A stretch of 64,000 nt of DNA from Alphaproteobacteria bacterium (GTDB taxonomy: Bacteria > Pseudomonadota > Alphaproteobacteria > Rs-D84), in NCBI GenBank assembly GCA_017616785.1, contig JAFZXK010000012.1:32004-96003 (forward strand). Reading direction: 5' to 3'. The notes under the pieces were generated by a model. It had not been told where the DNA came from. It saw only the letters and a program-made list of their open reading frames with translations, and searched no databases. Below, piece by piece: positions 1,732 through 52,170 of this stretch (position 1 is the first letter of the stretch; every line of letters starts with the position of its first letter). The position numbers and the translations under genes are program-made.

Positions 1732-1750
1732 TAAAAACAAGGGGAAAAAT

Positions 1751-2594: not shown

Positions 2595-2597
2595 AAT

Positions 2598-4798: not shown

Positions 4799-4816
4799 TT
4801 ATTCAACTATTCGTGA

Positions 4817-35308: not shown

Positions 35309-35368
35309 CCCGGGACTTAAGATTTTTGTAGCATGCAGGGAAGGATTATAAAATTTAAGGAAAGGAAA

Positions 35369-35917
35369 ATGAAAAATCGTTTGTATTTGGCGCTTTTTTC
35401 GTGTTTTTGTGCGTTGTGCGTTGTGTCGGCGGCACATGCGGTTTGTCCCGTTTGTACGATTGCCATTGGTGCGGGACTCGAAGGTATGCGTATGCTTGGG
35501 GTCAAAGATGTAATTACCGGCATTTGGGCGGGTGGCCTTACGGTTTCGTTGATTGGGTGGACGGCAAATTATATGCGGCGGCGTAATGTAACCGGATGGT
35601 TTTGGTATGTTTTGAACACCATTGTTTATATTGCGTTATTGGCAAGTGTGTATTTTATCCCCGTTGGTAATCCGGTTGTAAAATGGTGGGAAAATTGTAT
35701 GTGGGGAATGGACCAATTCTTGCTTGGGTCGTTGGTTGGTGCGGTTGTGTTTGTTTTGATGGAGTTATGGTATGCACATATAAAACGGAAAAATGGCGGA
35801 CATGCCCTATTCCCGTTTCAAAAGGTTGTTATGCCATTTGCGGGTTTGGTGTTTATGACATTGGTGTTTTGGCTGATTATAAAGGTTTTACCGACAATGG
35901 GTGTTGTGTTGTGCTAA
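35369..35917 (+). CDS. hypothetical membrane protein (signal peptide, CPVC motif, 4-5 TM segments)
   Basis: ORF begins at 35333, but the best RBS 'aaggaaaggaaaATG' supports a start at 35369. Hydrophobic segments throughout. Confidence 0.6.
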   Translation: MKNRLYLALFSCFCALCVVSAAHAVCPVCTIAIGAGLEGMRMLGVKDVITGIWAGGLTVSLIGWTANYMRRRNVTGWFWYVLNTIVYIALLASVYFIPVGNPVVKWWENCMWGMDQFLLGSLVGAVVFVLMELWYAHIKRKNGGHALFPFQKVVMPFAGLVFMTLVFWLIIKVLPTMGVVLC

Positions 35918-35943
35918 AAGAATTTTAATAAAAGGAAGAAAAG

Positions 35944-36525
35944 ATGAAAGAAAAAAAGATGTCTTTGGAAGAAATGGTGCGAAAAATCGATGATTCCAAA
36001 AAGGTGAATCCGCTTGATTTGTCGTCTGACCAGGATTTGTCTATCGCGTTGATGAACCTTGTGTCGTTGGAAGAACATTTCTTTTTTAGTGGCGCAAAAA
36101 CAAAAAAGTCCGGGTTTTATGATTTGATAAATGTGGTGCGGAATATGCGCAAGGAACTTATGGAAAGAATTGTTGATAAAAACAAACATGATGGGGCCGA
36201 AGTTTGGTGCATATCAAAGCACTTGTTGGCGGCGTCTATGCGTTTGTACGAGGTTGGAACCAAGGCGTTGGGCGTCGGTAACAAGGCGGATGCGCAGAAA
36301 ATGTTTGAAAAGGCGTATGAACTTTATTCGCTTTTTTGGGGATTGAATATGGATATGATTGATTTGGCCGGTGTGAAAAAAATGGAACCGGTTTTGTATG
36401 ATTCTGTTGTTAAAACGGATAAAAAAAGTGACAAGGAAGTAAAGGAAGAAATGGTAAAGTCAAAGTCAACCGTGCAGAAATTGGGCGATTGGGTAAAGAA
36501 GAAAGTAAATTGCTGTATCGAGTAA
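35944..36525 (+). CDS. hypothetical protein (193 aa, Lys/Glu-rich, no signal peptide)
   Basis: Good RBS 'aaaggaagaaaagATG'. No recognisable family. Confidence 0.55.
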   Translation: MKEKKMSLEEMVRKIDDSKKVNPLDLSSDQDLSIALMNLVSLEEHFFFSGAKTKKSGFYDLINVVRNMRKELMERIVDKNKHDGAEVWCISKHLLAASMRLYEVGTKALGVGNKADAQKMFEKAYELYSLFWGLNMDMIDLAGVKKMEPVLYDSVVKTDKKSDKEVKEEMVKSKSTVQKLGDWVKKKVNCCIE

Positions 36526-36532
36526 TTTTGGC

Positions 36533-36561
36533 TTGATTAAAATTTGTGGTTTTTTCTATAA
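36533..36561 (+). promoter_or_regulatory. consensus sigma70 promoter (TTGATT-N17-TATAAT) driving the large secreted-protein operon
   Basis: TTGATT at 36533-38, a 17-nt spacer, TATAAT at 36556-61. Lies ~37 nt upstream of the 36598 start and RBS. Confidence 0.6.
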
Positions 36562-36597
36562 TCACAAATGTATGGGGAGTGAATTTTGCTAAGAAGG

Positions 36598-38874
36598 ATG
36601 GGAATTTTTGCGGTTTCTATGCTTGCGGTCGTGGTGGCTGCGGTGGCTGATACCGCCCAAAATCCACGCGCATTATCTACTCAAGCTGACACAAAATCTG
36701 ATACAAGGGTATTATCAAGAACGGCGACCATGGGTGCGCTAACGCGGCGTGCAATTGGTGAAACGCGCGCGCGTACGGGTGCGACCACGCGTTTGGCGCG
36801 TGCAACCTCATCCGGCGGTACGCGTGTCGTAACCGATTTGGCGCATGTGTCTGTGGCACGTTCGGCAACGGCGCAAAAGTCAAACCCGCGTGGCGGCGCG
36901 CGTAGTGTAACAAATTCGGTTGCGGGGCTTTCACGTGCGGCAACGACGGCGCGTGCAACGGCGGTCTTTAATGACCTTGGCAAGATTGGATCGGGGTATG
37001 CGGCGTGTCGCGAATCGTATGCGACATGTATGGATCAAATGTGCGCCAATGCAAATGATACTTATCGCCGTTGTTTTTGCAGTGACCGATTCACAAAATT
37101 CCGCAGTGTGGAAGAATCTTTGGATGAAGCAATGATTATGTTGCAACAATTCCAAGATAATAATTTAGAGGTTATTGATAAAACCGCCGCTGAAGTGAAC
37201 GCTATGTATTCCGCTAGTATTGGTGAGGCGGCGATAAAAAAGGATACAAGTGCGTCGGCAAAATTGTTGGATAATATAAATAAGTTATTGTCGGGTGGCG
37301 GAACAAGTTCGACCGCATCCAATATGAATAATTCTATTGGAATTTTAGATTTGGATTTTTCGGTTGATTTTGACGATGTTTGGTCTGATGGTGGGTTTTC
37401 GTTGTTTGATACCGGTAATCAGGATTTGTCCACGCTGGAAGGAACGGCGCTCTTTAACGCGGCCCAGCGGCAGTGTACTCGTTTAACACAGAATATGTGT
37501 GAAAATAATGCGGCGTTCACCATGTCGCGCAGTTCGTATAATATATTGATAAGTCAGGATTGCAATACGTATGAAAAGGCGTTGAACAAGAAAAAAGAAA
37601 CCGTGGCCCAGGCGGTGCGGACGGCGGAAAAATACCTGCGTGAGGCAAGATTAGAGGAATACCGTGCGCATAATTCGATGGATGTGAATGAATGTTTGGC
37701 CAAGGTACGTTCGGCAATGTTGTCTGATACGGCGTGTGGTGAAAACTATAAACGGTGTTTGGACCCGACGGGTGCGTATATCGATTCGACCGGCGAGCCG
37801 ATTTATTCGCCGCGCTTGTTCCAATTGGAAAAGACGATAAAGTTACCGGGGGTTACGGATAACAATATAAATACAGATATATTGGGTGCGAATTCCGCGT
37901 ATGAAAAGTTCTTGGATGGGTATCGTGGGTATGTGACCCAACAACTTGATACTTGTCGCAGTATTGCGGATTTCGTTTGGACGGAATTCAAGCGTAATGC
38001 GGTTATCGAAATTGCCCAGGCACAGGCGAACAAGATAGAGGAAGTGAAATCGTCTTGTGTGGATACAATTGCAGAATGTTACGACGCGCAATCGCAATCG
38101 ATTATAAAGTTGGGCAGCAAGAAAACCGCAACTACCGCCGGTGCACTGGGGCGTTATACCGCGCGTGATATGTGCCAGGAAAAAGTTTCTGCGTGCGCGG
38201 CATTGTATAGTCGGGGCACTGGATGTACATTTGATTCAAATGGGTATTTACAAAATAGCACGGCGTGCGGCATGGAATCTTTGATAACCTATGTAAATAC
38301 GGTTGATGATTTGATGGTTGTGGAAAAGTGCAAGGATGCGGTTGATGAGTATTTAACCGAACTTTGCACGCCGGATGACGGAAAATACGAATATCCGTAT
38401 AATTGCAAGGGACTGACGACACAACGAATCAGAGAGTTGATAACTGGTTATGTAGAGTCATATTGCAAAAACCCGACAATGTCGGATAGCGATTGGAGCA
38501 ATAGTCCACTTAAAACACAATTGGATGCATATGCTACTTTGGCGATAGATGATATTCAGGCAGATATCAAGGCAGTGTTGGCCGATATTTGTGAAGATTT
38601 GGATGGGTATTGGTATGATAATTTGCAAGGCGAAACCCTGTTAAAACAATTTTATACCAAGGTTTATGGGGGTAACGAAGATACTACATGGGGATATTGC
38701 TATCAAAATTCGGAACGTATTGCGTGCGAAAATTACAATGTCGGCCATGCGGATGATCCGTTAACCGAATGGTATAATGGGCAATGTACGTTCTTTGATG
38801 CGTGGTATGAAATGAAATGTAAAGAATTGGATGGTTATTACGAAGGTGGCACGTGTTATGTGCCGAACGAGTGA
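36598..38874 (+). CDS. secreted Cys-rich hypothetical protein (ORF 762 aa from TTG 36586; ATG 36598 preferred)
   Basis: RBS 'aagaagg' 3 nt before ATG 36598. Signal peptide MGIFAVSMLAVVVAAVA. An Ala/Arg/Thr-rich disordered region, then a ~600-aa domain with more than 40 Cys. TGA stop codon. Confidence 0.75.
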   Translation: MGIFAVSMLAVVVAAVADTAQNPRALSTQADTKSDTRVLSRTATMGALTRRAIGETRARTGATTRLARATSSGGTRVVTDLAHVSVARSATAQKSNPRGGARSVTNSVAGLSRAATTARATAVFNDLGKIGSGYAACRESYATCMDQMCANANDTYRRCFCSDRFTKFRSVEESLDEAMIMLQQFQDNNLEVIDKTAAEVNAMYSASIGEAAIKKDTSASAKLLDNINKLLSGGGTSSTASNMNNSIGILDLDFSVDFDDVWSDGGFSLFDTGNQDLSTLEGTALFNAAQRQCTRLTQNMCENNAAFTMSRSSYNILISQDCNTYEKALNKKKETVAQAVRTAEKYLREARLEEYRAHNSMDVNECLAKVRSAMLSDTACGENYKRCLDPTGAYIDSTGEPIYSPRLFQLEKTIKLPGVTDNNINTDILGANSAYEKFLDGYRGYVTQQLDTCRSIADFVWTEFKRNAVIEIAQAQANKIEEVKSSCVDTIAECYDAQSQSIIKLGSKKTATTAGALGRYTARDMCQEKVSACAALYSRGTGCTFDSNGYLQNSTACGMESLITYVNTVDDLMVVEKCKDAVDEYLTELCTPDDGKYEYPYNCKGLTTQRIRELITGYVESYCKNPTMSDSDWSNSPLKTQLDAYATLAIDDIQADIKAVLADICEDLDGYWYDNLQGETLLKQFYTKVYGGNEDTTWGYCYQNSERIACENYNVGHADDPLTEWYNGQCTFFDAWYEMKCKELDGYYEGGTCYVPNE

Positions 38875-38902
38875 TAAAACCGGATAAGGAAAGGAAAGAA
38901 AA

Positions 38903-41900
38903 ATGTTCAAAGGTTGGAAATTTTTGACCAGTTTTTGCGTTATGTTCGCAACGCTTTGTGGCGGGGCGTATGGCGCGGCAAGTGTTCGCGGTGGTGCGAC
39001 CGGACGTGCCGGTTCGCTTAGGACGCTTGGTGGCGGGACGAGTGCGACGGTCAAAACAAATGCGAACCAACCTGCCCCGTCGGTTGCGGTGACGGGCGAC
39101 GCGTCTGTGGCCGATTCGCCGCGTATGGTTACGGGAATTAGCACCGGACGGACGAAACTAAATCTTGCCTCGACCACGGGAACATCAGGTGGCCAGAACC
39201 TTAGTGAATTGCGCCAGGCCATAGAACAATTGCGTAATGATTATGATGCGTTGGATGAACGGTATAACACTTTGTTGGGTGATGTATCAAATGTGTCTGA
39301 TACGGCGCAAAATGCGAATTTAACGGCGGAAAGCAATGCAAACACACTTGTCGTTGTGCGTAGTGATTTGAACGATGCACAATCGGATCTTGCGGTTTTA
39401 AAGGCCGCCGGCGGTTTTGACGAAGCGCGTGTTCAACAAACGGTCGAAGGTGTCTTGGATGCCAGGGATTATGCGACACAATCGCAATTGGCGGCGACCG
39501 ATGTTGTGGCGCGTGGCGCGGTGCAATTGAACGATTTGTCGCAAAAATTAGATGCGTTGAATATTGCGGACCGGGATTATGTTGACACTATGGTTGCAAC
39601 TGGTATGAGTGACACCAGGGTCCAAGGTATTGTGAACGATTCGCTTAATAACACCATGGCGAATTACTATACGAAAAAGCAAGTTAATGATGCGATTAAT
39701 ACCGCAAAGGACGGTATGGTTGACAAAGATTATGTTGATTACCAGGTTCAAACCAGTATCGGTGACAAGGCGTCATACACTTATGTTGACCAAAAGGTTG
39801 CAACGGGCATGAACGAGGCCCAAGTCCAAGGTATTATCGGCAATGTGCTTGGTGGTACATTGGAAAATTATTATGATAAGGGGACGGTTGATTCCTTGGT
39901 CGATGCCGCCGTTGTGGACGCAAAAAATGGCATGGTGGACAAGGACTATGTTGATAATCAGGTTCGCGATATGGCGTCCAAAGATTGGGTTAATAATAAA
40001 ATCGCGGATATTGAAATCGGGGTCGATGAGTATGAAATTCGAAACATACTTGCCCAGGGTGACTATAAGACGGGTACACAGGTTGAAGGTATCGTAACAG
40101 ACGCACTTAATGGTGCACTTGGGAATTATTATACCCGGCAACAGGTTAACAAGGCAATTAGTGATGCCAAAGAGGGTATGGTTGGTATGGACCAACTTAA
40201 TTATCAACTTAGCGGTTTGGCACCAAAAAGTTGGGTGACCACCCAAATTGATAGTGCTGTTACAGACCTTGATTTTGGGTTGAACAGGGATGCGGTAAAG
40301 GCTGTGGTTGAAGAGTATGGATATAAAAATGAAAATGATGTCCGGGGTATTATAACTGGTTATGGTTATGTAAAAGAAACCGATATTCCAGACCTGGTTA
40401 ATCAATGGGCACCGGGCGCAGAGATACAATACGCGGACGGGAAGTTATATTTCGTGGATAAAGACGGAAACGATAGGGTCGTTGATATTCGCGGGCTGGA
40501 TGGGCAAGATGGTGCCCAGGTTGAACTTCAAAAGAATGGTGACGTGATTCAGTGGCGTTATGCCAGTGGAAATGACCAATCGTGGCATAACCTTGTTAAT
40601 TTGTCTGACTTGCGGGGGGCGGATGGCAAGTCAGTTGAATTTAGTGTTCAGCCCTATGGTCAGATAAAAGAAGCATTGGGGTATACAAAAGAAGGCGAAT
40701 CGAATTGGCAATTTTTATATAACCTTGACGATATAAATGGCACCGATGGGTGCGGGGTTCGGGCGACCCAGGTACCGGTTGACGGCGGAATATTGGTAAA
40801 ATTGTTACGCGATTGTGCGGGGCAACCGGGTGATGGGGATTTGTTAACGCAATTTACTATTTTGAACGGCGCCGATGGAACGGTGACGGATGAGCAAATT
40901 ATTGACGCGATGATGACCAGTCCGGAATTCATACAATTAATGCAAGTAAAGAACAAAGTTAATGATTCGGAAAAAGGTTTGGATGCCACATATAATTTGG
41001 CGCGTATGACGGCAAATGCGGTTGATGATGATAAAACGGGGCTTGAGGCAACATATGAATTGGCAAGTAACGCATGGGACAAGGTAAAAGATTTGGATAC
41101 AAATGTTACGACCAAGGATTATGTTGACAGTTATGTTAACGGGAAAATTGGTGAGTTAGATTATAACCCGGCAACATATGCAAAATTTGCAAGTGTTGGT
41201 GCTAAGTTGGGCTCTATTGGGAACATGACCGTGAAGGATTATGTTGATGAAAAGGTCCGTGGAATCACGACAGAGATCATGGTTGATAAAGGGACCGACG
41301 GTTTTACATACATCTGTAAAAATGGTAATACATGTGCAAATAAGCCAAATTATTGGGATAATGAATGGGAACGTATTGATGTTGATTTGACTGGTTATCT
41401 TAAACAGGAAACCGCAGATAATTTGTATGCATCTTTTGGAACCGAGGTTGTCGCGCGTGATGCCGCCACCGCCGCGACCAATGCCCAAACCACGGCGAAT
41501 AATGCATGGAATAAAGTGAAAGATTTGGGAGATGGTGTTACGGTTAGTGATTATGTCGATGAAAGAATCGGGACCATGGGATTTGACATGCTAACTGGTG
41601 ATGAATATACTGTTGCGAAAAAAATTGGCCTTGATGATCGCCAATACGGAAGCATGTCGGTAAAAGAGTATGTTGATAAAAAGGTTTCTGATGTTAATAC
41701 GAGTATTCAAATAGGTTCTTATAATAATCAAACATATATTTGCAAGCATAATGATTGCAAAACTCCTGCGGGACCGTATTATCCCGAAGATTGGGCGTTG
41801 ATTTCTGTGGACTTGTCGGGTTATCTTACAAGGAACGATGCAGAACGAGAGTTCGCATCGATTGAAACGGAATCCATAGCGGGTGCGGCACAGAATGCCG

Positions 41901-44443
41901 CGGCGAGTGCGCAAACCACCGCCGCCACCGCGCAGACAACGGCGAATAATGCGTTGGGCAAATTGGGTAATTTAGGAACCAAAACCGTGACCGAATATGT
42001 TGATGAGAAAGTTGGTAGTACTGGTTTGAGTATTCGTGTTGAAACTGGTACCGATGGTTATACGTATATTTGTACCGCAAAAGAATCGGATTGTCGTGAT
42101 GCGCCCTCGTCGTCTTCCTCTTATTGGTCGCGAATAAACTTTAATATACCTGATGAATATCTTACAGCAACAGAGGGTAATGAGTTGTATGCATTGAAAA
42201 CTCAAATTGGTACATTGGGCGGCAGTTTTACAAGTGTCGCGGATAAGATTGGCCTTAACGATTATCAGTATGGTAACACATCGGTAAAAGATTATGTTGA
42301 TAATAAGGTTAGTAATATTAGTACAAGCATCCAGATTGAAACATCAAATGGAACAACGTATATTTGCAAGACGGGTAGTGGTTGTCCAGAGTATGATTTG
42401 ACTAATACGACTTATTGGACACCGGTTGCCGTAAATCTTGGTAATTTGGGTACAAATCCATCAACGGGGCAAACATATACAGTTGCGCAAAAAATAGGTC
42501 TTACTGATTCCGCTAATATAAACAAGACAGTTGTTGGGTATGTTGGTGAAAAAATCGGTGATTTGGGTTCTTATAGCACATATTACGGTCAACAACCGCA
42601 TAGTGTATTAACTTATCTTCAGGCCAATTATGCACCTATAACAAGTATTGGAACTTTGGGTAAAATAAATGCCTCTACGGATGCCAGTAGTGTTGCAGAG
42701 AAACTTGGTCTCGAAATCACCAATGCTAATAACACGGTTGCTGGGTATATCACTGGAAGAATTGGAAGTACGGGAACTGATACTTATGGTCAACCAAAAA
42801 GTGTCGTAGATTTCCTTTCAACCACTTATGCCCCGTTGGCCAAGATTGGTGATTTAGGTGCGGCGTATACTGGTGCGCCAACCTATACTGTTGCGGAAAA
42901 AATTGGCCTTGTTGATAGTAATGTAAATAAGACGGTAAAGGGATATGTTGATGAAAAAATTGGTACTTTGGGTGATAATTATGCCAGTGTTGCAGCGAAA
43001 CTTGGGGAAGAAATCACCAATACTAACAAGACGGTGGCGACATATATTGCTGATGCGGTAAATGCGGCCGGAACCAGTATAGTGGTTAGATCTAGTGCCA
43101 CTGACGGCAATACATATATCTGTACAGGTTCAGATTGTTCGGCAACGGATCCGTATGGCGATAGTAATTGGACGAAACTTAATGTTAATTTAAGTGGTAT
43201 TAATGCCATACTTTCCGGCTTTGGGGGTGAAAACCAACCGGCGACGGTAAAGGGGTATATTAGTGATAAAATCGGTACTTTGGGTAAGGTTATTGTGGAT
43301 GGTGATCCTGTAAATGCCCAAAGTGTCGCTGAAAAAATCGGAACAGAAATTACAAGTGCAAACAAAACGGTAGCTGGATATGTTGATACTGCAATCAATG
43401 GGTTATCAAGCACGTATGCGGCAAAATTTGTTGAAGAGAAGTTTGGGGCGATGAATAGTCAAAGTACCGTCACAGATTATGTTGGATCTGTGTTGGGCGA
43501 TTTGGGTAAAAAAGATAATTCAACGAATGCCGCAAGCGTTGCGGAAAAACTTGGGACGGATATCACAAGTTACGATGGGACAGTGAAGGATTATATTGCG
43601 TATTATGTCAGTGAAAATGCTGCCAGTGGTGGTGTGGTGGTAAAACCTGGGACCGATGGGAATACATATATTTGCACAGGGACAGATTGTTCATCACATG
43701 AAAATGATCCGAATAATGATTCAACCAATTGGACAAAACTTAATGTGGATTTGACTGCGATTAACACCGCAATTACGAATTTGCAGACTGGTAAGGCGGA
43801 CAAAACGGAGATAGGCACGTTGGGAAAAGTAAATAGTTCAACTGATGCCAGCAGTGTTGCGGAAAAACTTGGAACAGAAATAACAAGTGCTGATAATACT
43901 GTCGCGGGTTACATTACAGGAAAAATTGGTGATTTGGGTAAAAAAGATAGTTCAACGAATGCCGCAAGCGTTGCTGCAAAACTTGGGACGGATATCACAA
44001 GTTACGATGGGACAGTGAAGGATTATATTGCGTATTATGTCAGTGAAAACGCGGCCAGTGGTGGGGTACAGGTAAAAACAGTTGGAAATGATACATACAT
44101 ATGCAGTGAAAATTGCGAATCCGATCCACCATGTCAAGAAGGCAGCGAATCCACGTGTGGTTGGCAAAAACTTCAGGTTAATTTGACAGAATACCTTAAG
44201 AGTTCGGTCGCGGCGAGTACTTATGTTGCAAGCGCGGGGCTTAAGTTGGTTCGTGATGGGGCAGATATTAAATTACAGCAGGTTTCTGATGGTACGGTAG
44301 TTAAAGATTATGGTGTGATTGCCGGGGTTCAAGATTTGATGTGTCAGTCATATGAAATGCAGGAAATTCTGGGTACCGATCCTAGGTATATTCCAGGAAA
44401 GGTTACTTATGAAATGGTTTGTGTGACCAATGGTAGTAATTAA
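38903..44443 (+). CDS. giant secreted fibrous repeat protein (1846 aa): coiled-coil N-region, collagen-like GXY segments, ~28 copies of a [VT]K[DGE]Y[VI]D.K[VI]G..G repeat
   Basis: RBS 'aaggaaaggaaagaaaaATG'. Signal peptide. Short collagen-like triplet runs: GLDGQDGAQ with only 3 GXY repeats, RGADGKS with 2. Many periodic 'VKDYVDEKV/ITGKIGDLG' units, each followed by small Cys-containing knobs (TYICK..GC). 28 nt after the previous gene. Confidence 0.85.
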   Translation: MFKGWKFLTSFCVMFATLCGGAYGAASVRGGATGRAGSLRTLGGGTSATVKTNANQPAPSVAVTGDASVADSPRMVTGISTGRTKLNLASTTGTSGGQNLSELRQAIEQLRNDYDALDERYNTLLGDVSNVSDTAQNANLTAESNANTLVVVRSDLNDAQSDLAVLKAAGGFDEARVQQTVEGVLDARDYATQSQLAATDVVARGAVQLNDLSQKLDALNIADRDYVDTMVATGMSDTRVQGIVNDSLNNTMANYYTKKQVNDAINTAKDGMVDKDYVDYQVQTSIGDKASYTYVDQKVATGMNEAQVQGIIGNVLGGTLENYYDKGTVDSLVDAAVVDAKNGMVDKDYVDNQVRDMASKDWVNNKIADIEIGVDEYEIRNILAQGDYKTGTQVEGIVTDALNGALGNYYTRQQVNKAISDAKEGMVGMDQLNYQLSGLAPKSWVTTQIDSAVTDLDFGLNRDAVKAVVEEYGYKNENDVRGIITGYGYVKETDIPDLVNQWAPGAEIQYADGKLYFVDKDGNDRVVDIRGLDGQDGAQVELQKNGDVIQWRYASGNDQSWHNLVNLSDLRGADGKSVEFSVQPYGQIKEALGYTKEGESNWQFLYNLDDINGTDGCGVRATQVPVDGGILVKLLRDCAGQPGDGDLLTQFTILNGADGTVTDEQIIDAMMTSPEFIQLMQVKNKVNDSEKGLDATYNLARMTANAVDDDKTGLEATYELASNAWDKVKDLDTNVTTKDYVDSYVNGKIGELDYNPATYAKFASVGAKLGSIGNMTVKDYVDEKVRGITTEIMVDKGTDGFTYICKNGNTCANKPNYWDNEWERIDVDLTGYLKQETADNLYASFGTEVVARDAATAATNAQTTANNAWNKVKDLGDGVTVSDYVDERIGTMGFDMLTGDEYTVAKKIGLDDRQYGSMSVKEYVDKKVSDVNTSIQIGSYNNQTYICKHNDCKTPAGPYYPEDWALISVDLSGYLTRNDAEREFASIETESIAGAAQNAAASAQTTAATAQTTANNALGKLGNLGTKTVTEYVDEKVGSTGLSIRVETGTDGYTYICTAKESDCRDAPSSSSSYWSRINFNIPDEYLTATEGNELYALKTQIGTLGGSFTSVADKIGLNDYQYGNTSVKDYVDNKVSNISTSIQIETSNGTTYICKTGSGCPEYDLTNTTYWTPVAVNLGNLGTNPSTGQTYTVAQKIGLTDSANINKTVVGYVGEKIGDLGSYSTYYGQQPHSVLTYLQANYAPITSIGTLGKINASTDASSVAEKLGLEITNANNTVAGYITGRIGSTGTDTYGQPKSVVDFLSTTYAPLAKIGDLGAAYTGAPTYTVAEKIGLVDSNVNKTVKGYVDEKIGTLGDNYASVAAKLGEEITNTNKTVATYIADAVNAAGTSIVVRSSATDGNTYICTGSDCSATDPYGDSNWTKLNVNLSGINAILSGFGGENQPATVKGYISDKIGTLGKVIVDGDPVNAQSVAEKIGTEITSANKTVAGYVDTAINGLSSTYAAKFVEEKFGAMNSQSTVTDYVGSVLGDLGKKDNSTNAASVAEKLGTDITSYDGTVKDYIAYYVSENAASGGVVVKPGTDGNTYICTGTDCSSHENDPNNDSTNWTKLNVDLTAINTAITNLQTGKADKTEIGTLGKVNSSTDASSVAEKLGTEITSADNTVAGYITGKIGDLGKKDSSTNAASVAAKLGTDITSYDGTVKDYIAYYVSENAASGGVQVKTVGNDTYICSENCESDPPCQEGSESTCGWQKLQVNLTEYLKSSVAASTYVASAGLKLVRDGADIKLQQVSDGTVVKDYGVIAGVQDLMCQSYEMQEILGTDPRYIPGKVTYEMVCVTNGSN

Positions 44444-44459
44444 TTGAGGGGATGAAAAA

Positions 44460-47400
44460 ATGAGAAAGGATATAACTTTTGGTTTGATTTGTTTTGCCAT
44501 GATGTTTGGTATGGCGGGTGGTGCGCTTGCCGCACTTGGAACGGGTGAAATATCCATGGGAACTTTTTCTATTCCGTTGCCTGCGGACGGCAAGGACGGA
44601 TGTGCGCCTTTGATTCGTTCTATTGATTCATCGGTGGATTCATCGATAGCCGATGGGTGTTACGTAATTCAACAAAAGCAACAAACCCGTAATGGCGATT
44701 CGTGTGAAGGAACCGGCTCATGGGAGAATATCACTACTGTTTGTGATGGTGATGATGGTGCAGGCCTTGGTGAAGAAGATATTGTTGTTGCATATGTGGC
44801 GTATCCTGATTCGACAGAAAGTTATACAATGCCCTATCAACAGGGATATATGACAAAAAGCGTAGGTAATACGGTTTTGAACAAGTCAGAAGATTATTGT
44901 GAAGAGTTTTATGAAGACGGGGTAACAAAAAAGAAATGCACTGCGCAAGGTGATGCGACAAATTGGCTAAACAGTGATGGCACTGGGAATTATCAGACGG
45001 GTGAAACATATGTCTTTGCAACCGATCAATTGAATGATGGTTATCCCCGCAATGAATACACAACACCAAGGTTGTCAGGTGGAAGTTCAGGTTATCCGAC
45101 TGCGCCGGGGGTTACGAACAGAGTTTATAGATATACAAGCGGGCGCGAACGGTTCGAACTTGTTGCAATTGATGCGTGTGATTGGTACGCAAAAAGAACA
45201 GATACGACTGATCGGGTTAGGAAATGCACTGTTGGGGCGCCGACGGGGACGCCGGGACTTGCCAACCCTTATACGGCCGGTGCAACATATTGCTTAGGTG
45301 ATCATCAAAGTAATTGTAGTCAATATACTGTGCTGGTTGGTGCGGTTGATACATGTGCAACTTTATCGTCCAGTGATACTGCGTGGTGGACAACCGTCGA
45401 TCATACCGAATCTGAGTATACTGATCCCAATTATAGTTCTAGTTGTACAACGAATTGTACCGGAACACCGGGATATAAAATTATTAAAGAAGTAATGTGT
45501 GATGGTACTGCGCACGAGACGACCCAAAATGATACTTGTAGCCCGGCACAGAGTACCAGTGTGACCTGTGCGAGTGGTTACATATGGCAAACATGTACAA
45601 AACGGACGGCGGTTGCGGATACTGCACATGGAACTTATTCGGGATGTTTTCCGGATCCGTTTAATGATTTGTACGCCCGAAGAACGGATATCATTCCGGC
45701 AAATTTTGCGGCGGATAGTAACTATTTGTATTATTGTCGGCGTTCGGATTGTGATACGAATGCCGCATGCTGGGTGGACGGTCAGATAAATGTAACGCCG
45801 TTGTGGAATAGTACAAATGGTTGTTGGGGACGTGTGTCTATAAATGGGCTCCAGGGTGATGCGGGACCGGGATGTTCGTTTGTTTACAATGGTACCAAGT
45901 GGCAGGTGTGTTGTTTGCCAGTTGGTGCCAATGGTGTCATAGATACAACACAAAGTTGGAGTTGTAATGATGTTGACGCCAATACTGAAGCGCAATTGAA
46001 CCAATGGTTGTGCAAACCGACATATACCACATTTTATCTGACCCCGAAAGCAGGTGGTGGTTATAATGAAACAGCGACTAGTTCGACCAGACCGAATGAT
46101 ACCGTTGGTATAAGAACAAGGATAACAAATTGTGATGGAACCCAAGGGGCAACGATAGATACATTTGATGGTGAAGATGGGGAGCCAGGGGGTGATTATA
46201 ATCCTTGTGATGGATTAGAGCCGGGGTCGGTTGCGGCACAGACAACCATACAAAGTCAAACATCTGTGTATGTTTCTAATACTTCAAGTAGTAATATATT
46301 CACACCAAAAGTTGGTTATTATCAGACAACCACCAACATGTGCGAAGGTAATCCGCAAATAACATATAAGCAAGATAAATGTATACCTGTGTCACTTGCA
46401 ACCGGGGATTCGCGTACTGTTGGAACTATTACTTGTGCTGCGAATCAGACATTAATGCGTTGTACGCCACAGGCAGGTGCCAGTACAGATCCATACTTTA
46501 TTTGCGAAAATGCCGAGGTCAGCGGGTATCCAGAAAAACAATATGTTGCACCAGCTGGGACCAATGGGGTATTGAATACGGCCGGTTACACGCGTTGGGC
46601 GCATAAATATACTAGTTCTTCATCAATAGTTTATGAGAAAATTGATGATGATACGTGTCGGAATGCGGTAAAGAGAACGCGTAATGCAGCAAATACACAA
46701 ACCACAACAAGGAACGTGTTAAAGTGTACTGTTCAGAACCCTGGGACTAATGGGTATACTGAAGGATCTTCATATTGTTTGTTTATGGCCAGTGGGGAAA
46801 ATTGTGATGATTATATCATAGCAGGCAGCGAAGTCGAAGAATATGAAACCAAGTATATGTCGCCGACCGGCAGCGATGGTGTGCTTACAAAAGAAGGATA
46901 TACGTGTAAACAAAGAAAACTTACGAGAACAGCTGCTGGATCAACGGATCCTGTTGTCGTGGAAGAATCATGTCAGCTGGTTGAAAAGGATACGTGTAAC
47001 AAGGCCGTAAAATACACCCGCACAACTAGCAATCAGGTTGTAAATATGGTAGAAAAAAGTTTATTAAAGTGCGAGGTTCAATATCCTGGTAATAGCTCTT
47101 ACACAGCCGGGACGTATTATTGTTTGAACCTGGGGGGGGGCGAGAATTGTGCTGATTATAATATCGTTGGTGACGTGTCAGAGCAATCACAAGATGAATA
47201 CGTTGCGCCGACCATGTCAGATGGCAAACCTACATCGGTTGGATATCTGCGGACCAGTGTGACAAATACTAGGTTCGCATCGGGTAGTCAAACCTATTAT
47301 ACAAATGAACGCAAGGATCCAGGTCGTAAAGTTTATAAGGGAACAAGTAGCACCATAAAGTATACTGTTCAGGCACCTGGGGCTGGATCTGAACCATTTA

Positions 47401-49184
47401 TAACTGGTGCAGAATATTGCCTTAATATGACAATTGGCGAATGCCAAACGTATAAAGATGATGATCCTTGTGCGTCGGTAGCGACAGCGTCTGATGCGGT
47501 AAAGGCCAAGACAGTGCAAAAGATTTTAGAACGCACTTATTCACCTGCCAATAATAGTCAAGGTTCGATGGTTTCGACATACAAAATGTGTGATGATTCG
47601 ACGCATACGGAATCCACGCCGGATGAATGCAGGGAGGTGCCAACGCCGGCGGGCCAGACCTGTACTAATGGGGTATGGATGCAGTGTACGCGTCAAGCGG
47701 ACGAAGGAACCGGTACCAGTACCGCGCGTGGAACCACGTATGGATATTGTGCTGTATATCCACAATGTGTTGGGAATGAAAGTAGCACATCGATAGTAAA
47801 AAAGACGCAACGTTCGTATACTCCGCCGACCAAAACCGGTAGTAACAGTTATTATGATACGGTCGGTAAAATAACGGATGTTAAGATTGCGTGTGATAAT
47901 AGTTCAACCACGATAGAATCGGTGGATGATGAATGCGATGAAATTCCGAATACCACAAGTATTTGTCCGGCTGACAAGGTCCTTAAACAATGTAAACGTC
48001 AGGGGAAACAGGATAGCGATCTTGCCGGGTCGACATATAATTTGTGTACAGTATATCCGCAATGTGTTGGGAATACGAGTTCCGCTACGATTGTGAAAAA
48101 GACGGAACGTTCATATACTGCACCTGGTGGATCTGGTGGTTCTGGTGATAAAACATACTATACTACGGTTGGTAAGGTTACGGATGTTAAGGTTGCGTGT
48201 AATGGGACCACGATATCTACGGAGGAATCGGCCGAGGATCAATGTGATGAAATTCCGAATACCGCCAGTGTTTGCCCAACTAACAAGGTCCTTAAAACAT
48301 GTACACGCAAGGGTAACCAGGGTACGAGTAATGACACAAAAGCCGGGACGACATACAATCTTTGTACGACCGGGCCTTCTATATATGGTTCAATTGCCGA
48401 TAATGACCCGTGTGGTGGTGATACGACCAGTGATTCGGCAAAGAAAAAGGTCAAGAGCATTCAATATGAATATATAACAAAGGATGCAACCGGAAACACC
48501 GCCAAGGTTGGATACAGTAAAAAAACAACCACGATGTGTAATCAGGCGGGGAACACGGATGAATATATATATGATACTTGTATTCCAGTAGCATCTGCAT
48601 CAGGATGTAATGGGGCAAATGATAAGAATTATAAGTGTTATAACCAAACCAAACTTACGAGTACTAATGCCAGTGAACGTGAATATAACACATGCAATCC
48701 ATCATCGAATGTTTCGTCGGTTGCGCTATCTAATAAAATTGATGGGAAGTTGGATAATGATGTCACGTTTACAACTGGGACTTATGATAACAAAGATTAT
48801 ATTTTGATGAGTGCGACAGGGATAACTAATAAACCCGTGGTGCCGGTTGACACATTAAAACCACAATCCTTATTCGATACTTGGAAGGAAGAACAGAAAA
48901 ACAAGAACTGGACGGCAGCTGAATGTGCGGCGCTTTTTGGAAGCGGGGTGAATTGTAGCACGGGTGCTGGGTTGACTACGGAGATGATGTTTCAAAGTTT
49001 TACGGACTATGGGGTTTGGAAACAGGAACAGGTTGAAGATGGTGAAACCGATGCGGCGGATTTAACAACAACGGTGTACAGGCAAAGTTTATCTTCGTGT
49101 CCGGGTGGAATCACACTTACGCCGAATGGGACAGATGCCAATGGCGGAAATAAATATACGATGACTTGTGCGGATGCGTCATAG
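44460..49184 (+). CDS. giant secreted Cys-rich repeat protein (1574 aa), paralogue of the downstream 829-aa protein
   Basis: 16 nt after the previous stop. Signal peptide. The N-terminal domain (DGCAPLI...CYVIQQKQQTRNGDSCEGTGSWENITTVCDG) is homologous to the N-terminus of the 49218 gene. Tandem ~95-aa units of form ..RSYT.P....YY.TVGK.TDVK.ACD...T....D.CDEIPNT...CP..KVLK.C.R.G. Confidence 0.85.
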   Translation: MRKDITFGLICFAMMFGMAGGALAALGTGEISMGTFSIPLPADGKDGCAPLIRSIDSSVDSSIADGCYVIQQKQQTRNGDSCEGTGSWENITTVCDGDDGAGLGEEDIVVAYVAYPDSTESYTMPYQQGYMTKSVGNTVLNKSEDYCEEFYEDGVTKKKCTAQGDATNWLNSDGTGNYQTGETYVFATDQLNDGYPRNEYTTPRLSGGSSGYPTAPGVTNRVYRYTSGRERFELVAIDACDWYAKRTDTTDRVRKCTVGAPTGTPGLANPYTAGATYCLGDHQSNCSQYTVLVGAVDTCATLSSSDTAWWTTVDHTESEYTDPNYSSSCTTNCTGTPGYKIIKEVMCDGTAHETTQNDTCSPAQSTSVTCASGYIWQTCTKRTAVADTAHGTYSGCFPDPFNDLYARRTDIIPANFAADSNYLYYCRRSDCDTNAACWVDGQINVTPLWNSTNGCWGRVSINGLQGDAGPGCSFVYNGTKWQVCCLPVGANGVIDTTQSWSCNDVDANTEAQLNQWLCKPTYTTFYLTPKAGGGYNETATSSTRPNDTVGIRTRITNCDGTQGATIDTFDGEDGEPGGDYNPCDGLEPGSVAAQTTIQSQTSVYVSNTSSSNIFTPKVGYYQTTTNMCEGNPQITYKQDKCIPVSLATGDSRTVGTITCAANQTLMRCTPQAGASTDPYFICENAEVSGYPEKQYVAPAGTNGVLNTAGYTRWAHKYTSSSSIVYEKIDDDTCRNAVKRTRNAANTQTTTRNVLKCTVQNPGTNGYTEGSSYCLFMASGENCDDYIIAGSEVEEYETKYMSPTGSDGVLTKEGYTCKQRKLTRTAAGSTDPVVVEESCQLVEKDTCNKAVKYTRTTSNQVVNMVEKSLLKCEVQYPGNSSYTAGTYYCLNLGGGENCADYNIVGDVSEQSQDEYVAPTMSDGKPTSVGYLRTSVTNTRFASGSQTYYTNERKDPGRKVYKGTSSTIKYTVQAPGAGSEPFITGAEYCLNMTIGECQTYKDDDPCASVATASDAVKAKTVQKILERTYSPANNSQGSMVSTYKMCDDSTHTESTPDECREVPTPAGQTCTNGVWMQCTRQADEGTGTSTARGTTYGYCAVYPQCVGNESSTSIVKKTQRSYTPPTKTGSNSYYDTVGKITDVKIACDNSSTTIESVDDECDEIPNTTSICPADKVLKQCKRQGKQDSDLAGSTYNLCTVYPQCVGNTSSATIVKKTERSYTAPGGSGGSGDKTYYTTVGKVTDVKVACNGTTISTEESAEDQCDEIPNTASVCPTNKVLKTCTRKGNQGTSNDTKAGTTYNLCTTGPSIYGSIADNDPCGGDTTSDSAKKKVKSIQYEYITKDATGNTAKVGYSKKTTTMCNQAGNTDEYIYDTCIPVASASGCNGANDKNYKCYNQTKLTSTNASEREYNTCNPSSNVSSVALSNKIDGKLDNDVTFTTGTYDNKDYILMSATGITNKPVVPVDTLKPQSLFDTWKEEQKNKNWTAAECAALFGSGVNCSTGAGLTTEMMFQSFTDYGVWKQEQVEDGETDAADLTTTVYRQSLSSCPGGITLTPNGTDANGGNKYTMTCADAS

Positions 49185-49217
49185 TAGATAAATCTAGATC
49201 GATAAAGAGGGTTAAAG

Positions 49218-51707
49218 ATGAGAAAAAATATTTTGATTGTTGCTGTTTTTGGGGCGTGCATGATGAACGGTGTCATGGCTGCGTATACAATCGGTGAATT
49301 TACCGCACCGCGTGGCGCGAACGGAGCAAATGGAACGAATGGTACAAATGGCACAAATGGTGCTGATGCTTGCCCGCCGTTGATTTCGTCAGATACAAAA
49401 GATGCGAACGGTTGTTTTGTTGTTAAACAGAGGGCTCAGGTTCGTAATAATGGAAGCTGTCAGGCCACGGGAAGTTGGACGACCATTGATACGGTGTGTG
49501 ATTGTCGGCCGACGGAGACAAGGACCCGCTGTTACGGGACGGGGGATAATAAGTGCGATGATACCACGCGTACGGGGGTAAAGATTGTTACAACACAATG
49601 TGATGGCACAGGTTCGACAACTTCTTATATTTATGATAATGATTGCGGTATCACGATTGCAAGTGTGGCCGATGTCCACCGAGATAATGATTCTAATGAG
49701 CCGGTTACACATAAAAGGGTTACATTCAAAGATTGCAACAATAATACATTGTCGACGACGGCGGATATTCCGGTTGGTACTGATGGTGCCGCGTGTGAAG
49801 CCGAAGTGGTAACTACGGCCTGTGGACCAGTAGGCACGGCATCGGTACGTTGTGCCGATACAGCAAAACGCGGTATCAAGGTTGAACGCAAGAATTGTTC
49901 TGGTCAAATTGTTGATGCTGATACGCAGTATATATATAATGGCGATAATGGAACATCATTTAACTTTATGGGAACCGTCGCAAGTTGTGGGGCTTTACAG
50001 GTCAAGCCAGGGGTACGAAACGATGCATGGCTGGTTGGAACCAAGGGCGATGGTGACGGAGAAGGCAAACTTTGTATTTATGGTGAGAACGGATGGCCGA
50101 CCAATTGCCCAGATGACTGTGCGGAGTTTACTGGGCCTGCGGGTGCAAACAATTGTACAGCACTTGAAGATTCGAGTACGGCAGTGAAAAACAGTACATT
50201 GGCATATAGCGCGCCAACTAAAACCAATCAATCAGATGCATATTATACGGGGCGTGGAGGAATGCTGCGGACAAATGTTATGTGCAACCCAAATTTGAAT
50301 AATACAATAGAAAAATTGGAAGATACTTGTTTCCAAATAGTAAAGCCAACGAATAGTGCATGTACTGGGGTATATATGGAATGCACTCCTAAGGGAACCT
50401 ATGAAGGAAACACAAATTATTCAAAATATAATCTTTGTGTAACGACGACCGGAACAACGATTGAATCAGCATTAAGTAACAAAGAAGATAATCCGTGTGC
50501 AGGGAATAATTCAAGTTCAACAACAATAGAAAGAACCCAAACAACCGCGTATAGTGTACCGACTGGTAATACTACAACAGTAAGCAGTTATACGTATTAT
50601 ACTAATGCGCCTGGGAAAGTTGTTACAACCAGTGTAAAGTGTGATACTTCGGGGAATACAGTAATAGGAACTACACAAGATAAGTGTGTCGAGATTACAA
50701 AGCCGACGGGTGTCTGTACAAGTAACGATAAAAAGTTTTATCAATGTAAACCACAGGGGAAAATTGGAAGTGATACTAACCTGACGCCTTATTATCTTTG
50801 TGCGTCAGAATTGGAGCCATCATTGTTAGATAAAATTAATACGGCGCAGAATACGGCTGCTGAGGCGGCGAGTGCGGCGGAGACGGCAAATCCGTGTGTG
50901 GGAAGTAATTCAAATTCGGCGACAATAATAAAAAGTACGACAAGCACATCGTATAATCGCGGTACAAAGAGTGATGGTCTTTACCCAAGTATAGGCGGCA
51001 AGACCGTTACCAAAACCGCATGTGACGGGACCACAACTTATGTGACGACAGAGCAAGATTCTTGTGTTGAAATTGCAAAGCCAAGCGGTGTGTGTACACC
51101 AGCATCATCGGCTTATCTGCGTTGTTATAATGCACAAGTGAATTCTGATAACACATATTATGTTTGTCAGGATTTAGGTGATGGGAATAAGGCACTAAAT
51201 AATAAGATTGATGGCAAGGCGGATGCAACCGCGGTAACAGCCAGTGCATTAGCAAACACTTTGGGAAGCACATATTTGAAACCGACTGATAGTATAAGTG
51301 CTAGTAATTTAACGGGAACAATTGATGCCGGGAGATTGCCGAACACTGTTGTAACAACGGGTGATGATGCGACACATGGTTTTAATACGTTAATTGGTAA
51401 CGCCGTTCAGACCGAAGTAGCAACTCAAATTGAGAGTGCGAAACTTGTGAGCGAAAGTGACTTGGCTGATTATGTAAAAACTGATGGCACCAATTTGCCG
51501 AATAGTGTTGTCACGACAACTTCTTTGGGTACCCAAACATTTAATTTTGGTAAAGATAGCAACGATAATGATATTAGTTTAAGTATCAGCGAAATTGTAT
51601 CATTGCTTCATGCAGCAGCCGGGACATGTACACGGAACGCCGAGAGTGGAACAACAACTTGTCAGGGCGGAAGTTTGGGGACAATAACAACTTCGACTAG
51701 ACAATAG
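49218..51707 (+). CDS. secreted Cys-rich repeat protein (829 aa) with a collagen-like (G-x-N)6 tract and a tail-fibre-like C-terminal region
   Basis: RBS 'aaagagggttaaagATG'. Signal peptide. RGANGANGTNGTNGTNGADA encoded by near-perfect 9-nt tandem repeats. N-terminal domain and Cys repeat units shared with the 1574-aa protein. C-terminal ...SASNLTGTIDAGRLPNTVV... segment. Followed by a terminator. Confidence 0.85.
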   Translation: MRKNILIVAVFGACMMNGVMAAYTIGEFTAPRGANGANGTNGTNGTNGADACPPLISSDTKDANGCFVVKQRAQVRNNGSCQATGSWTTIDTVCDCRPTETRTRCYGTGDNKCDDTTRTGVKIVTTQCDGTGSTTSYIYDNDCGITIASVADVHRDNDSNEPVTHKRVTFKDCNNNTLSTTADIPVGTDGAACEAEVVTTACGPVGTASVRCADTAKRGIKVERKNCSGQIVDADTQYIYNGDNGTSFNFMGTVASCGALQVKPGVRNDAWLVGTKGDGDGEGKLCIYGENGWPTNCPDDCAEFTGPAGANNCTALEDSSTAVKNSTLAYSAPTKTNQSDAYYTGRGGMLRTNVMCNPNLNNTIEKLEDTCFQIVKPTNSACTGVYMECTPKGTYEGNTNYSKYNLCVTTTGTTIESALSNKEDNPCAGNNSSSTTIERTQTTAYSVPTGNTTTVSSYTYYTNAPGKVVTTSVKCDTSGNTVIGTTQDKCVEITKPTGVCTSNDKKFYQCKPQGKIGSDTNLTPYYLCASELEPSLLDKINTAQNTAAEAASAAETANPCVGSNSNSATIIKSTTSTSYNRGTKSDGLYPSIGGKTVTKTACDGTTTYVTTEQDSCVEIAKPSGVCTPASSAYLRCYNAQVNSDNTYYVCQDLGDGNKALNNKIDGKADATAVTASALANTLGSTYLKPTDSISASNLTGTIDAGRLPNTVVTTGDDATHGFNTLIGNAVQTEVATQIESAKLVSESDLADYVKTDGTNLPNSVVTTTSLGTQTFNFGKDSNDNDISLSISEIVSLLHAAAGTCTRNAESGTTTCQGGSLGTITTSTRQ

Positions 51708-51713
51708 GTTTAA

Positions 51714-51740
51714 AAAACACCGCCCAAATGGCGGTGGTTG
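51714..51740 (+). terminator. intrinsic terminator ending the secreted-protein operon (CACCGCCCAAATGGCGGTGG)
   Basis: Hairpin closely related to the dnaK terminator (CCGCCCAAATGGGCGGG). Also serves the convergent HTH gene. Confidence 0.6.
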
Positions 51741-51756
51741 TCGTTTGAAAAATATT

Positions 51757-52170
51757 TTATTCGCCTTCGGTTAATGTTTTTAGCAAGTTCATTACGGATT
51801 CGCGTTGTTTGTCACTGGACAATTTCCAATACATGCGAATCAATTCCAAACTTTCCGTGCGAACCAATGGATCGTCCGCGTTTGGTGAATGAACGTGAAT
51901 TGAACGACTGCTTTTTGTTTCGTCCGGCATATTCCCCGGCAACCCAATAAAGAAAAATGAAACCGGCGTTTGCATGGCACGCCCTATTTCAAATAAACGT
52001 GATGCGGATATGCGGTTGTCCGCACTTTCGTATTTCTGAATTTGTTGAAAAGTAACGCCACAGACGTGCGCCAAATCCTTTAATGATAATCCCATCATAG
52101 TCCGGCGCAATTGCATGCGTTTGCCGATATGTTGATCAACCGTTGATGGTATATATGCTTTCCCAGACAT
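51757..52170 (-). CDS. XRE-family helix-turn-helix transcriptional regulator
   Basis: 137 aa. HTH_XRE signature QHIGKRMQLRRTMMGLSLKDLAHVCGVTFQQIQKYESADNRISASRLFEIGRAM. Confidence 0.75.
   Translation of the reverse strand: MSGKAYIPSTVDQHIGKRMQLRRTMMGLSLKDLAHVCGVTFQQIQKYESADNRISASRLFEIGRAMQTPVSFFFIGLPGNMPDETKSSRSIHVHSPNADDPLVRTESLELIRMYWKLSSDKQRESVMNLLKTLTEGE

Follow-up and report, generated by a model that had tools for sequence, protein, structure and literature searches.

Tail fibres of phages are assembled in the cytoplasm and carry no signal peptide. Among the exported or surface fibre proteins of bacteria, Scl1/2 of Streptococcus, BclA of Bacillus and Lcl of Legionella have Gly-X-Y runs flanked by globular domains, and in the host-dependent chlamydiae the exported cysteine-rich envelope proteins OmcA and OmcB are cross-linked by disulfides. 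Giant repeat adhesins occur in bacteria with a reduced genome or an epibiotic life style. A precedent for secreted mosaic adhesins that resemble phage fibres is provided by the MAT fibres on the surface of the predator Bdellovibrio bacteriovorus, which have a signal peptide, a conserved N-terminal domain, a phage-like trimeric shaft and swappable tips (PMC10769870). The MAT superfamily has around 21 dispersed paralogues with a conserved, beta-rich N-terminal domain of about 130 amino acids (aa), and includes an S74 subfamily (PMC10769870). Here we describe a stretch of 64,000 nucleotides (nt) of contig JAFZXK010000012.1 (the window, to which positions refer unless another locus is named), in which four consecutive large genes, the open reading frames (ORFs) A, B, C and D, encode secreted proteins. 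Judging from the comparison of related loci, these genes do not form a single evolutionary unit: ORF A belongs to the core genes of the whole Candidatus Enterousia/Rs-D84 clade, and B-D are a lineage-restricted hypervariable cassette, occupying a slot that carries other cargo elsewhere. We read the locus, with moderate confidence and at about an even chance of being right, as a core gene followed by a variable slot, with B-D as Sec-exported mosaic surface fibres for contact with a partner or host.

The window comes from a metagenome-assembled genome (MAG) of Candidatus Enterousia, order Rs-D84, from the ruminant gut. Proteins identical to those described here occur on ruminant-gut metagenome contigs and in the MAG "Alphaproteobacteria bacterium" (locus tags J5714_02850/55/65), and the related loci found in a scan of GTDB species genomes carry the name Candidatus Enterousia. 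Members of this group, which belongs to the order Rs-D84 and is widespread in the guts of ruminants, horse, birds and human, have genomes of around 0.75-1.0 Mb, have lost most biosynthesis and have been proposed to be obligate symbionts or parasites living off another organism (PMC12306168). Uncharacterised membrane proteins have been suggested for the cell-cell interaction (PMC12306168), and in a bacterium of this kind proteins for contact are to be expected.

All four genes lie on the + strand: ORF A (36586-38874; 762 aa, TTG start), ORF B (38903-44443; 1846 aa), ORF C (44460-49184; 1574 aa) and ORF D (49218-51707; 829 aa). The intergenic gaps are 28 nt (A-B), 16 nt (B-C) and 33 nt (C-D). 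Reading of the sequence places a purine-rich Shine-Dalgarno element ahead of every start codon (GGGGAG for A, AAGGAAAGG for B, GAGGGGA for C and AGAGGG for D), and by eye all four N-termini have the basic n-region, hydrophobic core and AxA-type cleavage site of a Sec signal peptide. In the sizes of the four ORFs, the gaps of 16-33 nt, the strong ribosome-binding sites and the signal peptides, a preliminary description of this DNA is confirmed. It had also placed the promoter TTGATT-N17-TATAAT at 36533; a sigma-70-type promoter is present there (36533-36562, +; TTGATT at 36533-36538, TATAAT at 36557-36562), with a spacer of 18 nt, not 17. Promoter-like matches are not enriched inside the window (53, against 42.9 +/- 7 expected from shuffles). 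The motif TTGA[CT]T-N17/18-TAnA[AC]T is found shortly before the ORF A homologue, in the spacer between A and the preceding gene sY, in 69 of 78 distinct species-level loci; the distance between the two elements is 18 nt in 67 of the 69, with freely varying spacer sequence. Since the motif turns up in 1.3% of random 200-nt windows of the same loci, its occurrence is far beyond chance, and this phylogenetic footprint is strong evidence that the promoter is real and belongs to ORF A.

The four genes have the sequence features of an operon: one strand, short gaps, no strong internal terminator (terminator-like sites inside ORFs A-D are weak and at chance frequency) and a conserved upstream promoter. 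As the 28-nt gap after A is too small for a promoter of its own, B-D are most likely read through from the promoter of ORF A, in probable co-transcription with A. The co-directional string begins further upstream, with secA, dnaE, rsmH, sX and sY preceding A, and the gaps among rsmH, sX, sY and A are 24-60 nt. The single intrinsic terminator formerly proposed at 51714-51740 to close the set is sustained in part. A GC-rich, strand-neutral hairpin of 7 bp (51718-51736, -13.4 kcal/mol) does lie between D and the convergent gene of a helix-turn-helix (HTH) protein; its U-run is strong on the - strand only, where it serves the HTH gene, and the tail on the + strand is GUUGUCGUUU, which makes it a weak terminator for A-D. 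No RNA elements were found in the locus with Rfam.

ORF A has a signal peptide (aa 1-21), a disordered region rich in Arg, Ser, Thr and Ala (aa ~22-135) and then a mostly helical domain with 28 cysteines. In the alignment of homologues nearly all cysteines are invariant, and the approximately 110 residues past the signal peptide, of the same Arg/Ser/Thr/Ala-rich composition, are variable and close in a conserved ARATAVF motif. There are more than 1000 homologues, all annotated as hypothetical; among the 120 listed, full-length matches reach as low as 47% identity. In GTDB genomes, scanned at one per species, 249 matching stretches were found. An AlphaFold2 model is mostly helical with long helices, at a mean predicted local distance difference test (pLDDT) score of 58.9 and with values above 80 at aa ~570-760. 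Searches with ORF A in Pfam, NCBIfam, PHROG and the PDB (sequence profiles) gave no match, and comparison of the model with the PDB by Foldseek returned long-helix noise only (E >= 0.8), a result of little weight given the weak model. Member-wise Pfam scans of the A and D families, and of the E family described below, gave scattered noise only.

The genomic block around ORF A is fixed. The order SecA-DnaE-RsmH-sX-sY-A-slot-HTH-iPGM, with the HTH gene on the opposite strand, is kept across the ~80 syntenic loci retrieved. The HTH_3 (XRE-type) regulator gene (51757-52170, -; 137 aa) is convergent with D and, conserved in every locus, delimits the slot on the right. On the left, sX (35333-35917, +) encodes a multi-pass membrane protein of ~190 aa in which a CPVCT motif, unchanged in all of 63 homologues, closely follows the first hydrophobic stretch. 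The gene is a constant neighbour of the cysteine-rich ORF A, and no family match was found. Possibly, sX has a thiol-disulfide or metal-binding function in the membrane. The sY protein (35944-36525, +; 193 aa), encoded directly upstream of the ORF A promoter, has no signal peptide and ends in CCIE. Normally ftsL and ftsI come after rsmH (mraW), the leading gene of the division and cell-wall (dcw) cluster. In the window (34463-36525, +), and in every relative, the genes after rsmH are instead sX, sY and ORF A. The idea that ORF A substitutes for FtsI downstream of rsmH was dropped, as ORF A shows no signal of a transpeptidase or of any other family.

What follows ORF A varies between species. 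We defined the slot as the region from the end of ORF A to the convergent HTH gene and tallied its content over the 63 loci (numbered with the prefix L) in which both flanks are available. No gene occupies the slot (50-270 nt) in 14 loci, including the close relatives L015, L016 and L034, whose A proteins are 65-71% identical. In about 36 it holds a single cysteine-rich protein of ~280-530 aa with 18-26 cysteines, the E family, and in 10 it holds genes of the B/C/D type, mostly as a compact three-gene cassette of ~3-5.5 kb; in L027, L030 and L038 the slot instead contains one or two larger ORFs of this type. In one locus (L062) the slot carries a protein related to the giant gene of the window, a 22.7-kb gene described below. 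Full-size B-D genes are also present in four loci beyond the tally, and they occur only in the nearest relatives of the window (L011-L014, L017 and L091). Direct or inverted repeats flanking B-D, as a mark of mobile insertion, were sought, and intragenic repeats only were found.

Proteins of the E family are secreted, typically of ~400 aa with ~23 cysteines, and have weak cEGF-like matches and a conserved C-terminal motif, QCWT...EY..CV. Most Enterousia species have a single one in the slot (L033, L036, L037 and L039-L088, for instance L054:12438-13754). Homology of the E family to A or D was considered and rejected, because in profile comparison only the signal peptides align. The slot protein of L062 (L062:13887-20489) has 2200 aa and matches the giant protein with BLAST E values down to 1e-20, which suggests that the slot accepts several unrelated families of surface proteins. 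Regarding the source of the genomes, the B/C/D-type cassette loci for which one is stated are from ruminant MAGs, mostly of the foregut (goat omasum and reticulum, buffalo rumen, the RUG series and red deer); the single E-type protein is predominant in hindgut, faecal, bird and human MAGs, a host pattern confounded with phylogeny.

The three-gene cassettes keep the order B-type, C-type, D-type, although their sizes range about five-fold (B-type proteins have 269-2055 aa). The first gene encodes the B-type N-terminus, AASVR...RAGSLR, followed by a coiled-coil-like stretch, and the second and third encode the six-cysteine module found in C and D. Small two-cysteine caps form the C-termini, with the pattern PCPGG..L....Y.L.C.E in the first two proteins and GTC....TC.G in the third, and a signal peptide is present on every cassette protein inspected. 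From the preserved order over this range of sizes, B-D of the window are, on the sequence comparison, expanded forms of an ancestral three-gene unit. In L017 (L017:6818-11837) the C/D-type genes contain runs of N, which give X in the translation; assemblies break inside these repeat-rich genes, and the lengths in some public records are therefore unreliable.

On these results the earlier view of the four genes as one dedicated apparatus fails, since A is clade-wide, has its own promoter and occurs without B-D in most relatives. In a looser form, A could be the base or anchor in the envelope to which the slot proteins (B-D, the E family and others) attach as interchangeable parts. Cargo always lies directly downstream of A on the same strand without room for its own promoter, every type of cargo is secreted and cysteine-rich, and basic disordered N-terminal regions are present in both A and the B-type proteins. 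The empty slot in 14 of the 63 loci, close relatives among them, indicates that A functions without cargo, and neither A nor D is related to the E family; we consider this arrangement rather unlikely.

B-D also evolve several-fold faster than the remaining genome and have accumulated many indels. Compared with the closest relative, L091, the flanking proteins are nearly identical, with low ratios of nonsynonymous to synonymous substitution (dN/dS): SecA 97.1% identity and dN/dS 0.04, DnaE 96.4% and 0.045, sY 98.4% and 0.03. The values are 90.5% and 0.16 for A, 69.1% and 0.29 for B, and 64.1% and 0.34 for C, the last with 322 gap columns. Synonymous divergence (dS) in B and C is ~0.81-0.87, against 0.27-0.46 in the flanking genes, about double, which may reflect either exchange of alleles by recombination or misalignment of repeats. 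For B the homologue searches yielded only 12 proteins and for D 22, every one of them within the clade. Intragenic DNA duplications include a 150-nt repeat at 93% identity in B and copies of a ~300-nt module at ~80% identity in C; as read from these repeats, B-D enlarge through internal duplication of modules.

Internal repeats were mapped by BLAST self-comparison of protein fragments. In B, the signal peptide is followed by the conserved AASVR...RAGSLR region and a coiled-coil-like stretch (aa ~97-200), of which aa 97-160 give weak vimentin-coil matches in a search of PDB sequences (E 0.17-1). The shaft consists of ~75-aa repeats (aa 200-470) and of fibre repeats of the type TVKDYVDEKIG (aa ~700-1790) with inserted GTDGxTYIC knobs. 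With ~15 copies of the motif V/T-x-D/E/G-Y-V/I, the periodic VKDYVDEKIG repeat noted in the preliminary description is well founded. Among B-type proteins the N-terminus is conserved and the rest variable. C has a signal peptide, an N-domain common to D, six six-cysteine modules of ~110 aa (aa 297-406, 581-692, 1002-1100, 1101-1199, 1200-1314 and 1316-1429) and a C-terminal cap, CPGGITL...GGNKYTMTC. In D, the signal peptide is followed by six Gly-X-Y triplets (aa 33-50), the N-domain shared with C, a domain flanked elsewhere by collagen repeats (aa ~245-310), three beta-rich six-cysteine modules in tandem (50148-51215, +; aa 311-421, 425-542 and 558-666), an LPNTVVTT fibre tail and a C-terminal cap, GTC...TCQGG.

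The six-cysteine module is present in 82 copies in the collected family. The second module of D (aa 425-542), modelled with AlphaFold2, is beta-rich with a pLDDT of 90.7, and no match to the model was found among solved (PDB) or predicted viral folds; the modelled fold is possibly new. Short collagen-like runs, claimed earlier for the set, were recovered in D (6 triplets); B has 3-triplet runs only and C none of at least 3. D itself falls below Pfam Collagen reporting (not at E <= 0.1), and 4 of the 22 D-family members match weakly (best E = 0.007). Likewise, the claim of domains with more than 40 cysteines applies to C only, which has 75; A has 28, B 22 and D 39.

Searches of B-D in Pfam, NCBIfam and PHROGs gave nothing usable, and PDB sequence searches of the three proteins nothing meaningful. 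No enzyme family match was found in A-D (Pfam, NCBIfam, PHROGs), which bears out that the large, repetitive products are unlike known enzymes. Released effectors, for instance toxins, bacteriocin-like or nutrient-capturing proteins that are not attached to the cell, would also be secreted, cysteine-rich and hypervariable, as polymorphic toxins are. Nevertheless, Pfam and NCBIfam reveal neither a toxin or immunity domain nor an enzymatic one, the genes are not followed by small immunity-like ORFs, no PADLOC-type context was seen, although no search was aimed at it, and the architecture is mostly one of long tandem structural repeats with fibre motifs, so we regard this alternative as very unlikely. 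In A-D, Pfam gave no match to S-layer or SLH anchoring domains and none at E <= 0.1 to a YadA-like beta-barrel anchor, and Pfam and NCBIfam gave none to the head, neck and stalk motifs of YadA. The S-layer-like coat suggested earlier is unlikely, given the missing S-layer domains and the cysteine content of A, C and D (3.7-4.8%), S-layer proteins being typically poor in cysteine.

Two short segments link the cassette to phage fibres. The first, in B (aa 527-617; 40481-40753, +), is made of repeated units of the form GxDG...IQWRY...W..L..L.GxDG, like those of phage tail-fibre proteins; by tblastn it matches a protein of Erwinia phage Fifi011 that is annotated as tail fiber protein (E = 3e-5) and, more weakly, phage vB_EamP-S6 and others. 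This stretch is common to the first-gene proteins of the smaller cassettes. The second is the ~65-aa domain of D (aa ~245-310; 49950-50147, +) to which profile matches converge. A profile of the D family, run against 1.84 billion representative proteins, gave ~20 strong matches from the same clade and ~150 weak ones, and all of the weak matches align to this domain. In the proteins sampled it lies between collagen repeats and occurs together with Pfam Collagen, Peptidase_S74, Mtd_N or Fibritin_C; among its members are a protein of Serratia phage PCH45 and proteins named "collagen-like protein". Of the comparison with phage receptor-binding proteins and trimeric autotransporter adhesins that was proposed earlier, what survives is the pair of short phage-fibre-like modules; no YadA-type match was found.

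Because of these two segments, and because the domain of D is associated elsewhere with Peptidase_S74, Mtd_N and Fibritin_C, a prophage or tailocin remnant, or a domesticated module of tail-fibre genes, has to be considered. The phage-like matches cover at most 5% of each protein, and over 90% of each of B-D is unrelated to phage proteins. B, C and D all carry Sec signal peptides. None of A-D has a PHROG match past threshold, D has no match in INPHARED (tblastn), and no relatives were found in IMG/VR with the D profile or with B. Capsid, terminase, integrase, baseplate and sheath genes were not found in the window or the syntenic loci. The neighbours in the window and in the ~80 syntenic loci are housekeeping genes, and the chromosomal position is fixed across species. 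The preliminary description had already judged that this is not an obvious prophage remnant, and we rate such an origin as extremely improbable.

The preferred reading, a core gene with a variable slot of surface fibres, can be set out as follows. ORF A encodes a Sec-exported, mostly helical, disulfide-stapled protein whose N-terminal tail is basic and disordered. It is expressed from a conserved, near-consensus sigma-70 promoter of its own, and in view of this promoter it is probably an abundant envelope component. Directly downstream of A, and before the convergent HTH gene, lies a recombination-prone slot, here holding B, C and D. Each of these proteins begins with a family-specific N-terminal region, presumably on the cell side, continues as a long shaft and ends in a small two-cysteine cap. 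The shaft would have grown by tandem duplication of coiled-coil and short fibre repeats in B and of a disulfide-locked beta module of ~110 aa in C and D, with a few modules drawn from the same pool as those of phage tail fibres and collagen-like fibres. Repeat shafts and caps would project outward and diversify fast. For B-D we infer assembly into oligomeric fibres that pass through the outer membrane, are exposed at the surface and have a role in binding. Fast evolution with indels, in a partner-dependent organism with a genome below 1 Mb, makes exposed fibrils for contact and recognition most likely; by analogy with phage receptor-binding proteins and MAT fibres, they would act on a partner cell or a host surface.

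Several points weigh against this reading. In 14 genomes the slot is empty, indicating that the cargo is dispensable for the clade, and the raised dS of B and C could be partly due to repeat misalignment. An autotransporter barrel, a type I secretion signal and an S74 domain were not found in A-D (Pfam). Signs of trimers are slight, as the Gly-X-Y run of D is short (6 triplets) and the coiled-coil evidence is weak (E 0.17-1). In addition, a Pfam match to tolQ in an apparent ybgC-tolQ-tolR-tolA cluster (1351-3353, +), the other three genes of which were recognised by eye from sequence and position, makes an outer membrane likely and the cell probably diderm. Given that no outer-membrane translocation domain or system was found for fibres of 80-190 kDa, B-D could remain periplasmic. 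The window was formerly said to have no dedicated secretion genes, a statement to be qualified by the presence of this apparent tol cluster and of the general secA (28353-30962, +).

A periplasmic location would suit another explanation, in which A-D form a disulfide-cross-linked matrix of the envelope or periplasm that stiffens or coats a fragile cell, similar to the cysteine-rich outer-membrane complex of chlamydiae, and are not adhesins. The high content of conserved cysteines (A 3.7%, C 4.8%, D 4.7%), the Sec signal peptides combined with no recognisable feature for outer-membrane export, the strong conserved promoter of A and the adjoining membrane protein sX with its invariant CxxC would agree with such a matrix. 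Against this, the clade encodes peptidoglycan and rod-shape machinery, with MreB, RodA and MrdA retained (PMC12306168), and there is no match to a chlamydial outer-membrane protein family. Furthermore, most species have no B-D, and where present these genes change rapidly and gain indels, a pattern typical of exposed interaction proteins and not of a structural matrix. We therefore consider a matrix unlikely; if B-D do form one, the locus bears on how the envelope is built in reduced cells.

The giant gene of the window (4947-27659, +) encodes a protein of 7570 aa with a signal peptide and Listeria-Bacteroides repeats (Pfam Flg_new/List_Bact_rpt, E = 1e-17). Homology of this protein to B-D was considered and rejected, and with its different class of repeat (List_Bact_rpt) the 22.7-kb gene can no longer be counted in the same apparatus, as had been suggested. 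In L008 and L009 only small ORFs lie upstream of secA, and L091 has a related gene there; the giant gene seems to be lineage-specific.

Other features of the window and of the related records are noted here. A bacterial RNase P class A RNA (4464-4810, -; Rfam, 175.7 bits) lies near the apparent tol cluster. Between an RsmD-like methyltransferase gene and the L25 gene there is an ORF of 293 aa without family match (54924-55805, +); contigs L001 and L002 of the same species have it, and L008 and L009 lack it at that position. Two full Enterousia-type loci, L060 (CAVGNU010000005.1) and L065 (CAZJGX010000017.1), are filed under the bins "Bacteroides fragilis" and "uncultured Muribaculaceae", labels that most likely result from binning contamination in public records.

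In terms of novelty, secreted mosaic proteins of a fibre or adhesin-like type are an already known kind. The orphan families, possibly a new small fold, and the architecture of a core gene plus a variable slot in a little-known symbiont clade are new. B-D (~15 kb) and the giant gene (22.7 kb) would together amount to ~4% of the genome, if a size of ~0.9 Mb for the group (PMC12306168), not that of this MAG, is assumed, and they stand out as prime candidates for the machinery of contact in Enterousia. In practical terms, the conserved promoter and the core protein A could be used as markers and expression reporters, the variable slot would allow host or partner specificity to be followed by population genomics, and the compact six-cysteine domain is suited to expression, structure determination and binding screens. 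More tentatively, and with a probability that we place clearly below even, Enterousia may possess an expression platform, made of the promoter and the cysteine-stapled A, with a downstream hot-spot at which hypervariable fibre genes are swapped; the B/C/D cassette would then be a partner-recognition organelle built partly of phage-fibre parts and partly of a six-cysteine module of unseen fold. If true, this cassette would be the bacterial counterpart of phage receptor-binding proteins in a gut alphaproteobacterium that depends obligately on a partner.

Set beside the known systems, A-D resemble OmcA and OmcB in being exported and cysteine-rich, with disulfide cross-linking expected, and differ from them in that there is no sequence or family match (Pfam, NCBIfam), ORF A is helical and Enterousia keeps its peptidoglycan genes. 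As in the case of giant repeat adhesins, a large share of a genome below 1 Mb is devoted to secreted repeat proteins whose presence varies between species, though the giant List_Bact_rpt protein, with repeats of another class, has no homology to B-D. Collagen-like surface proteins have Gly-X-Y runs in common with the cassette, and runs of 12-13 triplets are seen in the B and D homologues of sister species; in the window the runs are limited to the 6 triplets of D, and an LPXTG motif, an exosporium-targeting motif or a known anchor is missing. With phage tail fibres and receptor-binding proteins, such as the collagen-like protein of Serratia phage PCH45 and fibres bearing Peptidase_S74, the cassette shares D aa 245-310 and B aa 527-617, and these fibres are likewise modular, tandemly duplicated and fast-evolving. 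Unlike them, B-D have Sec signal peptides, no phage neighbourhood and no IMG/VR relatives. Functionally, MAT fibres appear to be the closest parallel, a likeness in workings and not family membership. B-D lack the S74 domain, have shafts of coiled-coil or short repeats and of six-cysteine beta modules, and lie after a core gene as a cassette of three genes in fixed order, instead of ~21 dispersed paralogues. Like MAT fibres, they are encoded by chromosomal non-phage genes in a bacterium that depends on other cells, and they combine variable distal parts, which suggest that modules are swapped, with a signal peptide, a family-conserved N-terminus and a long repeat shaft with phage-tail-fibre-like elements.

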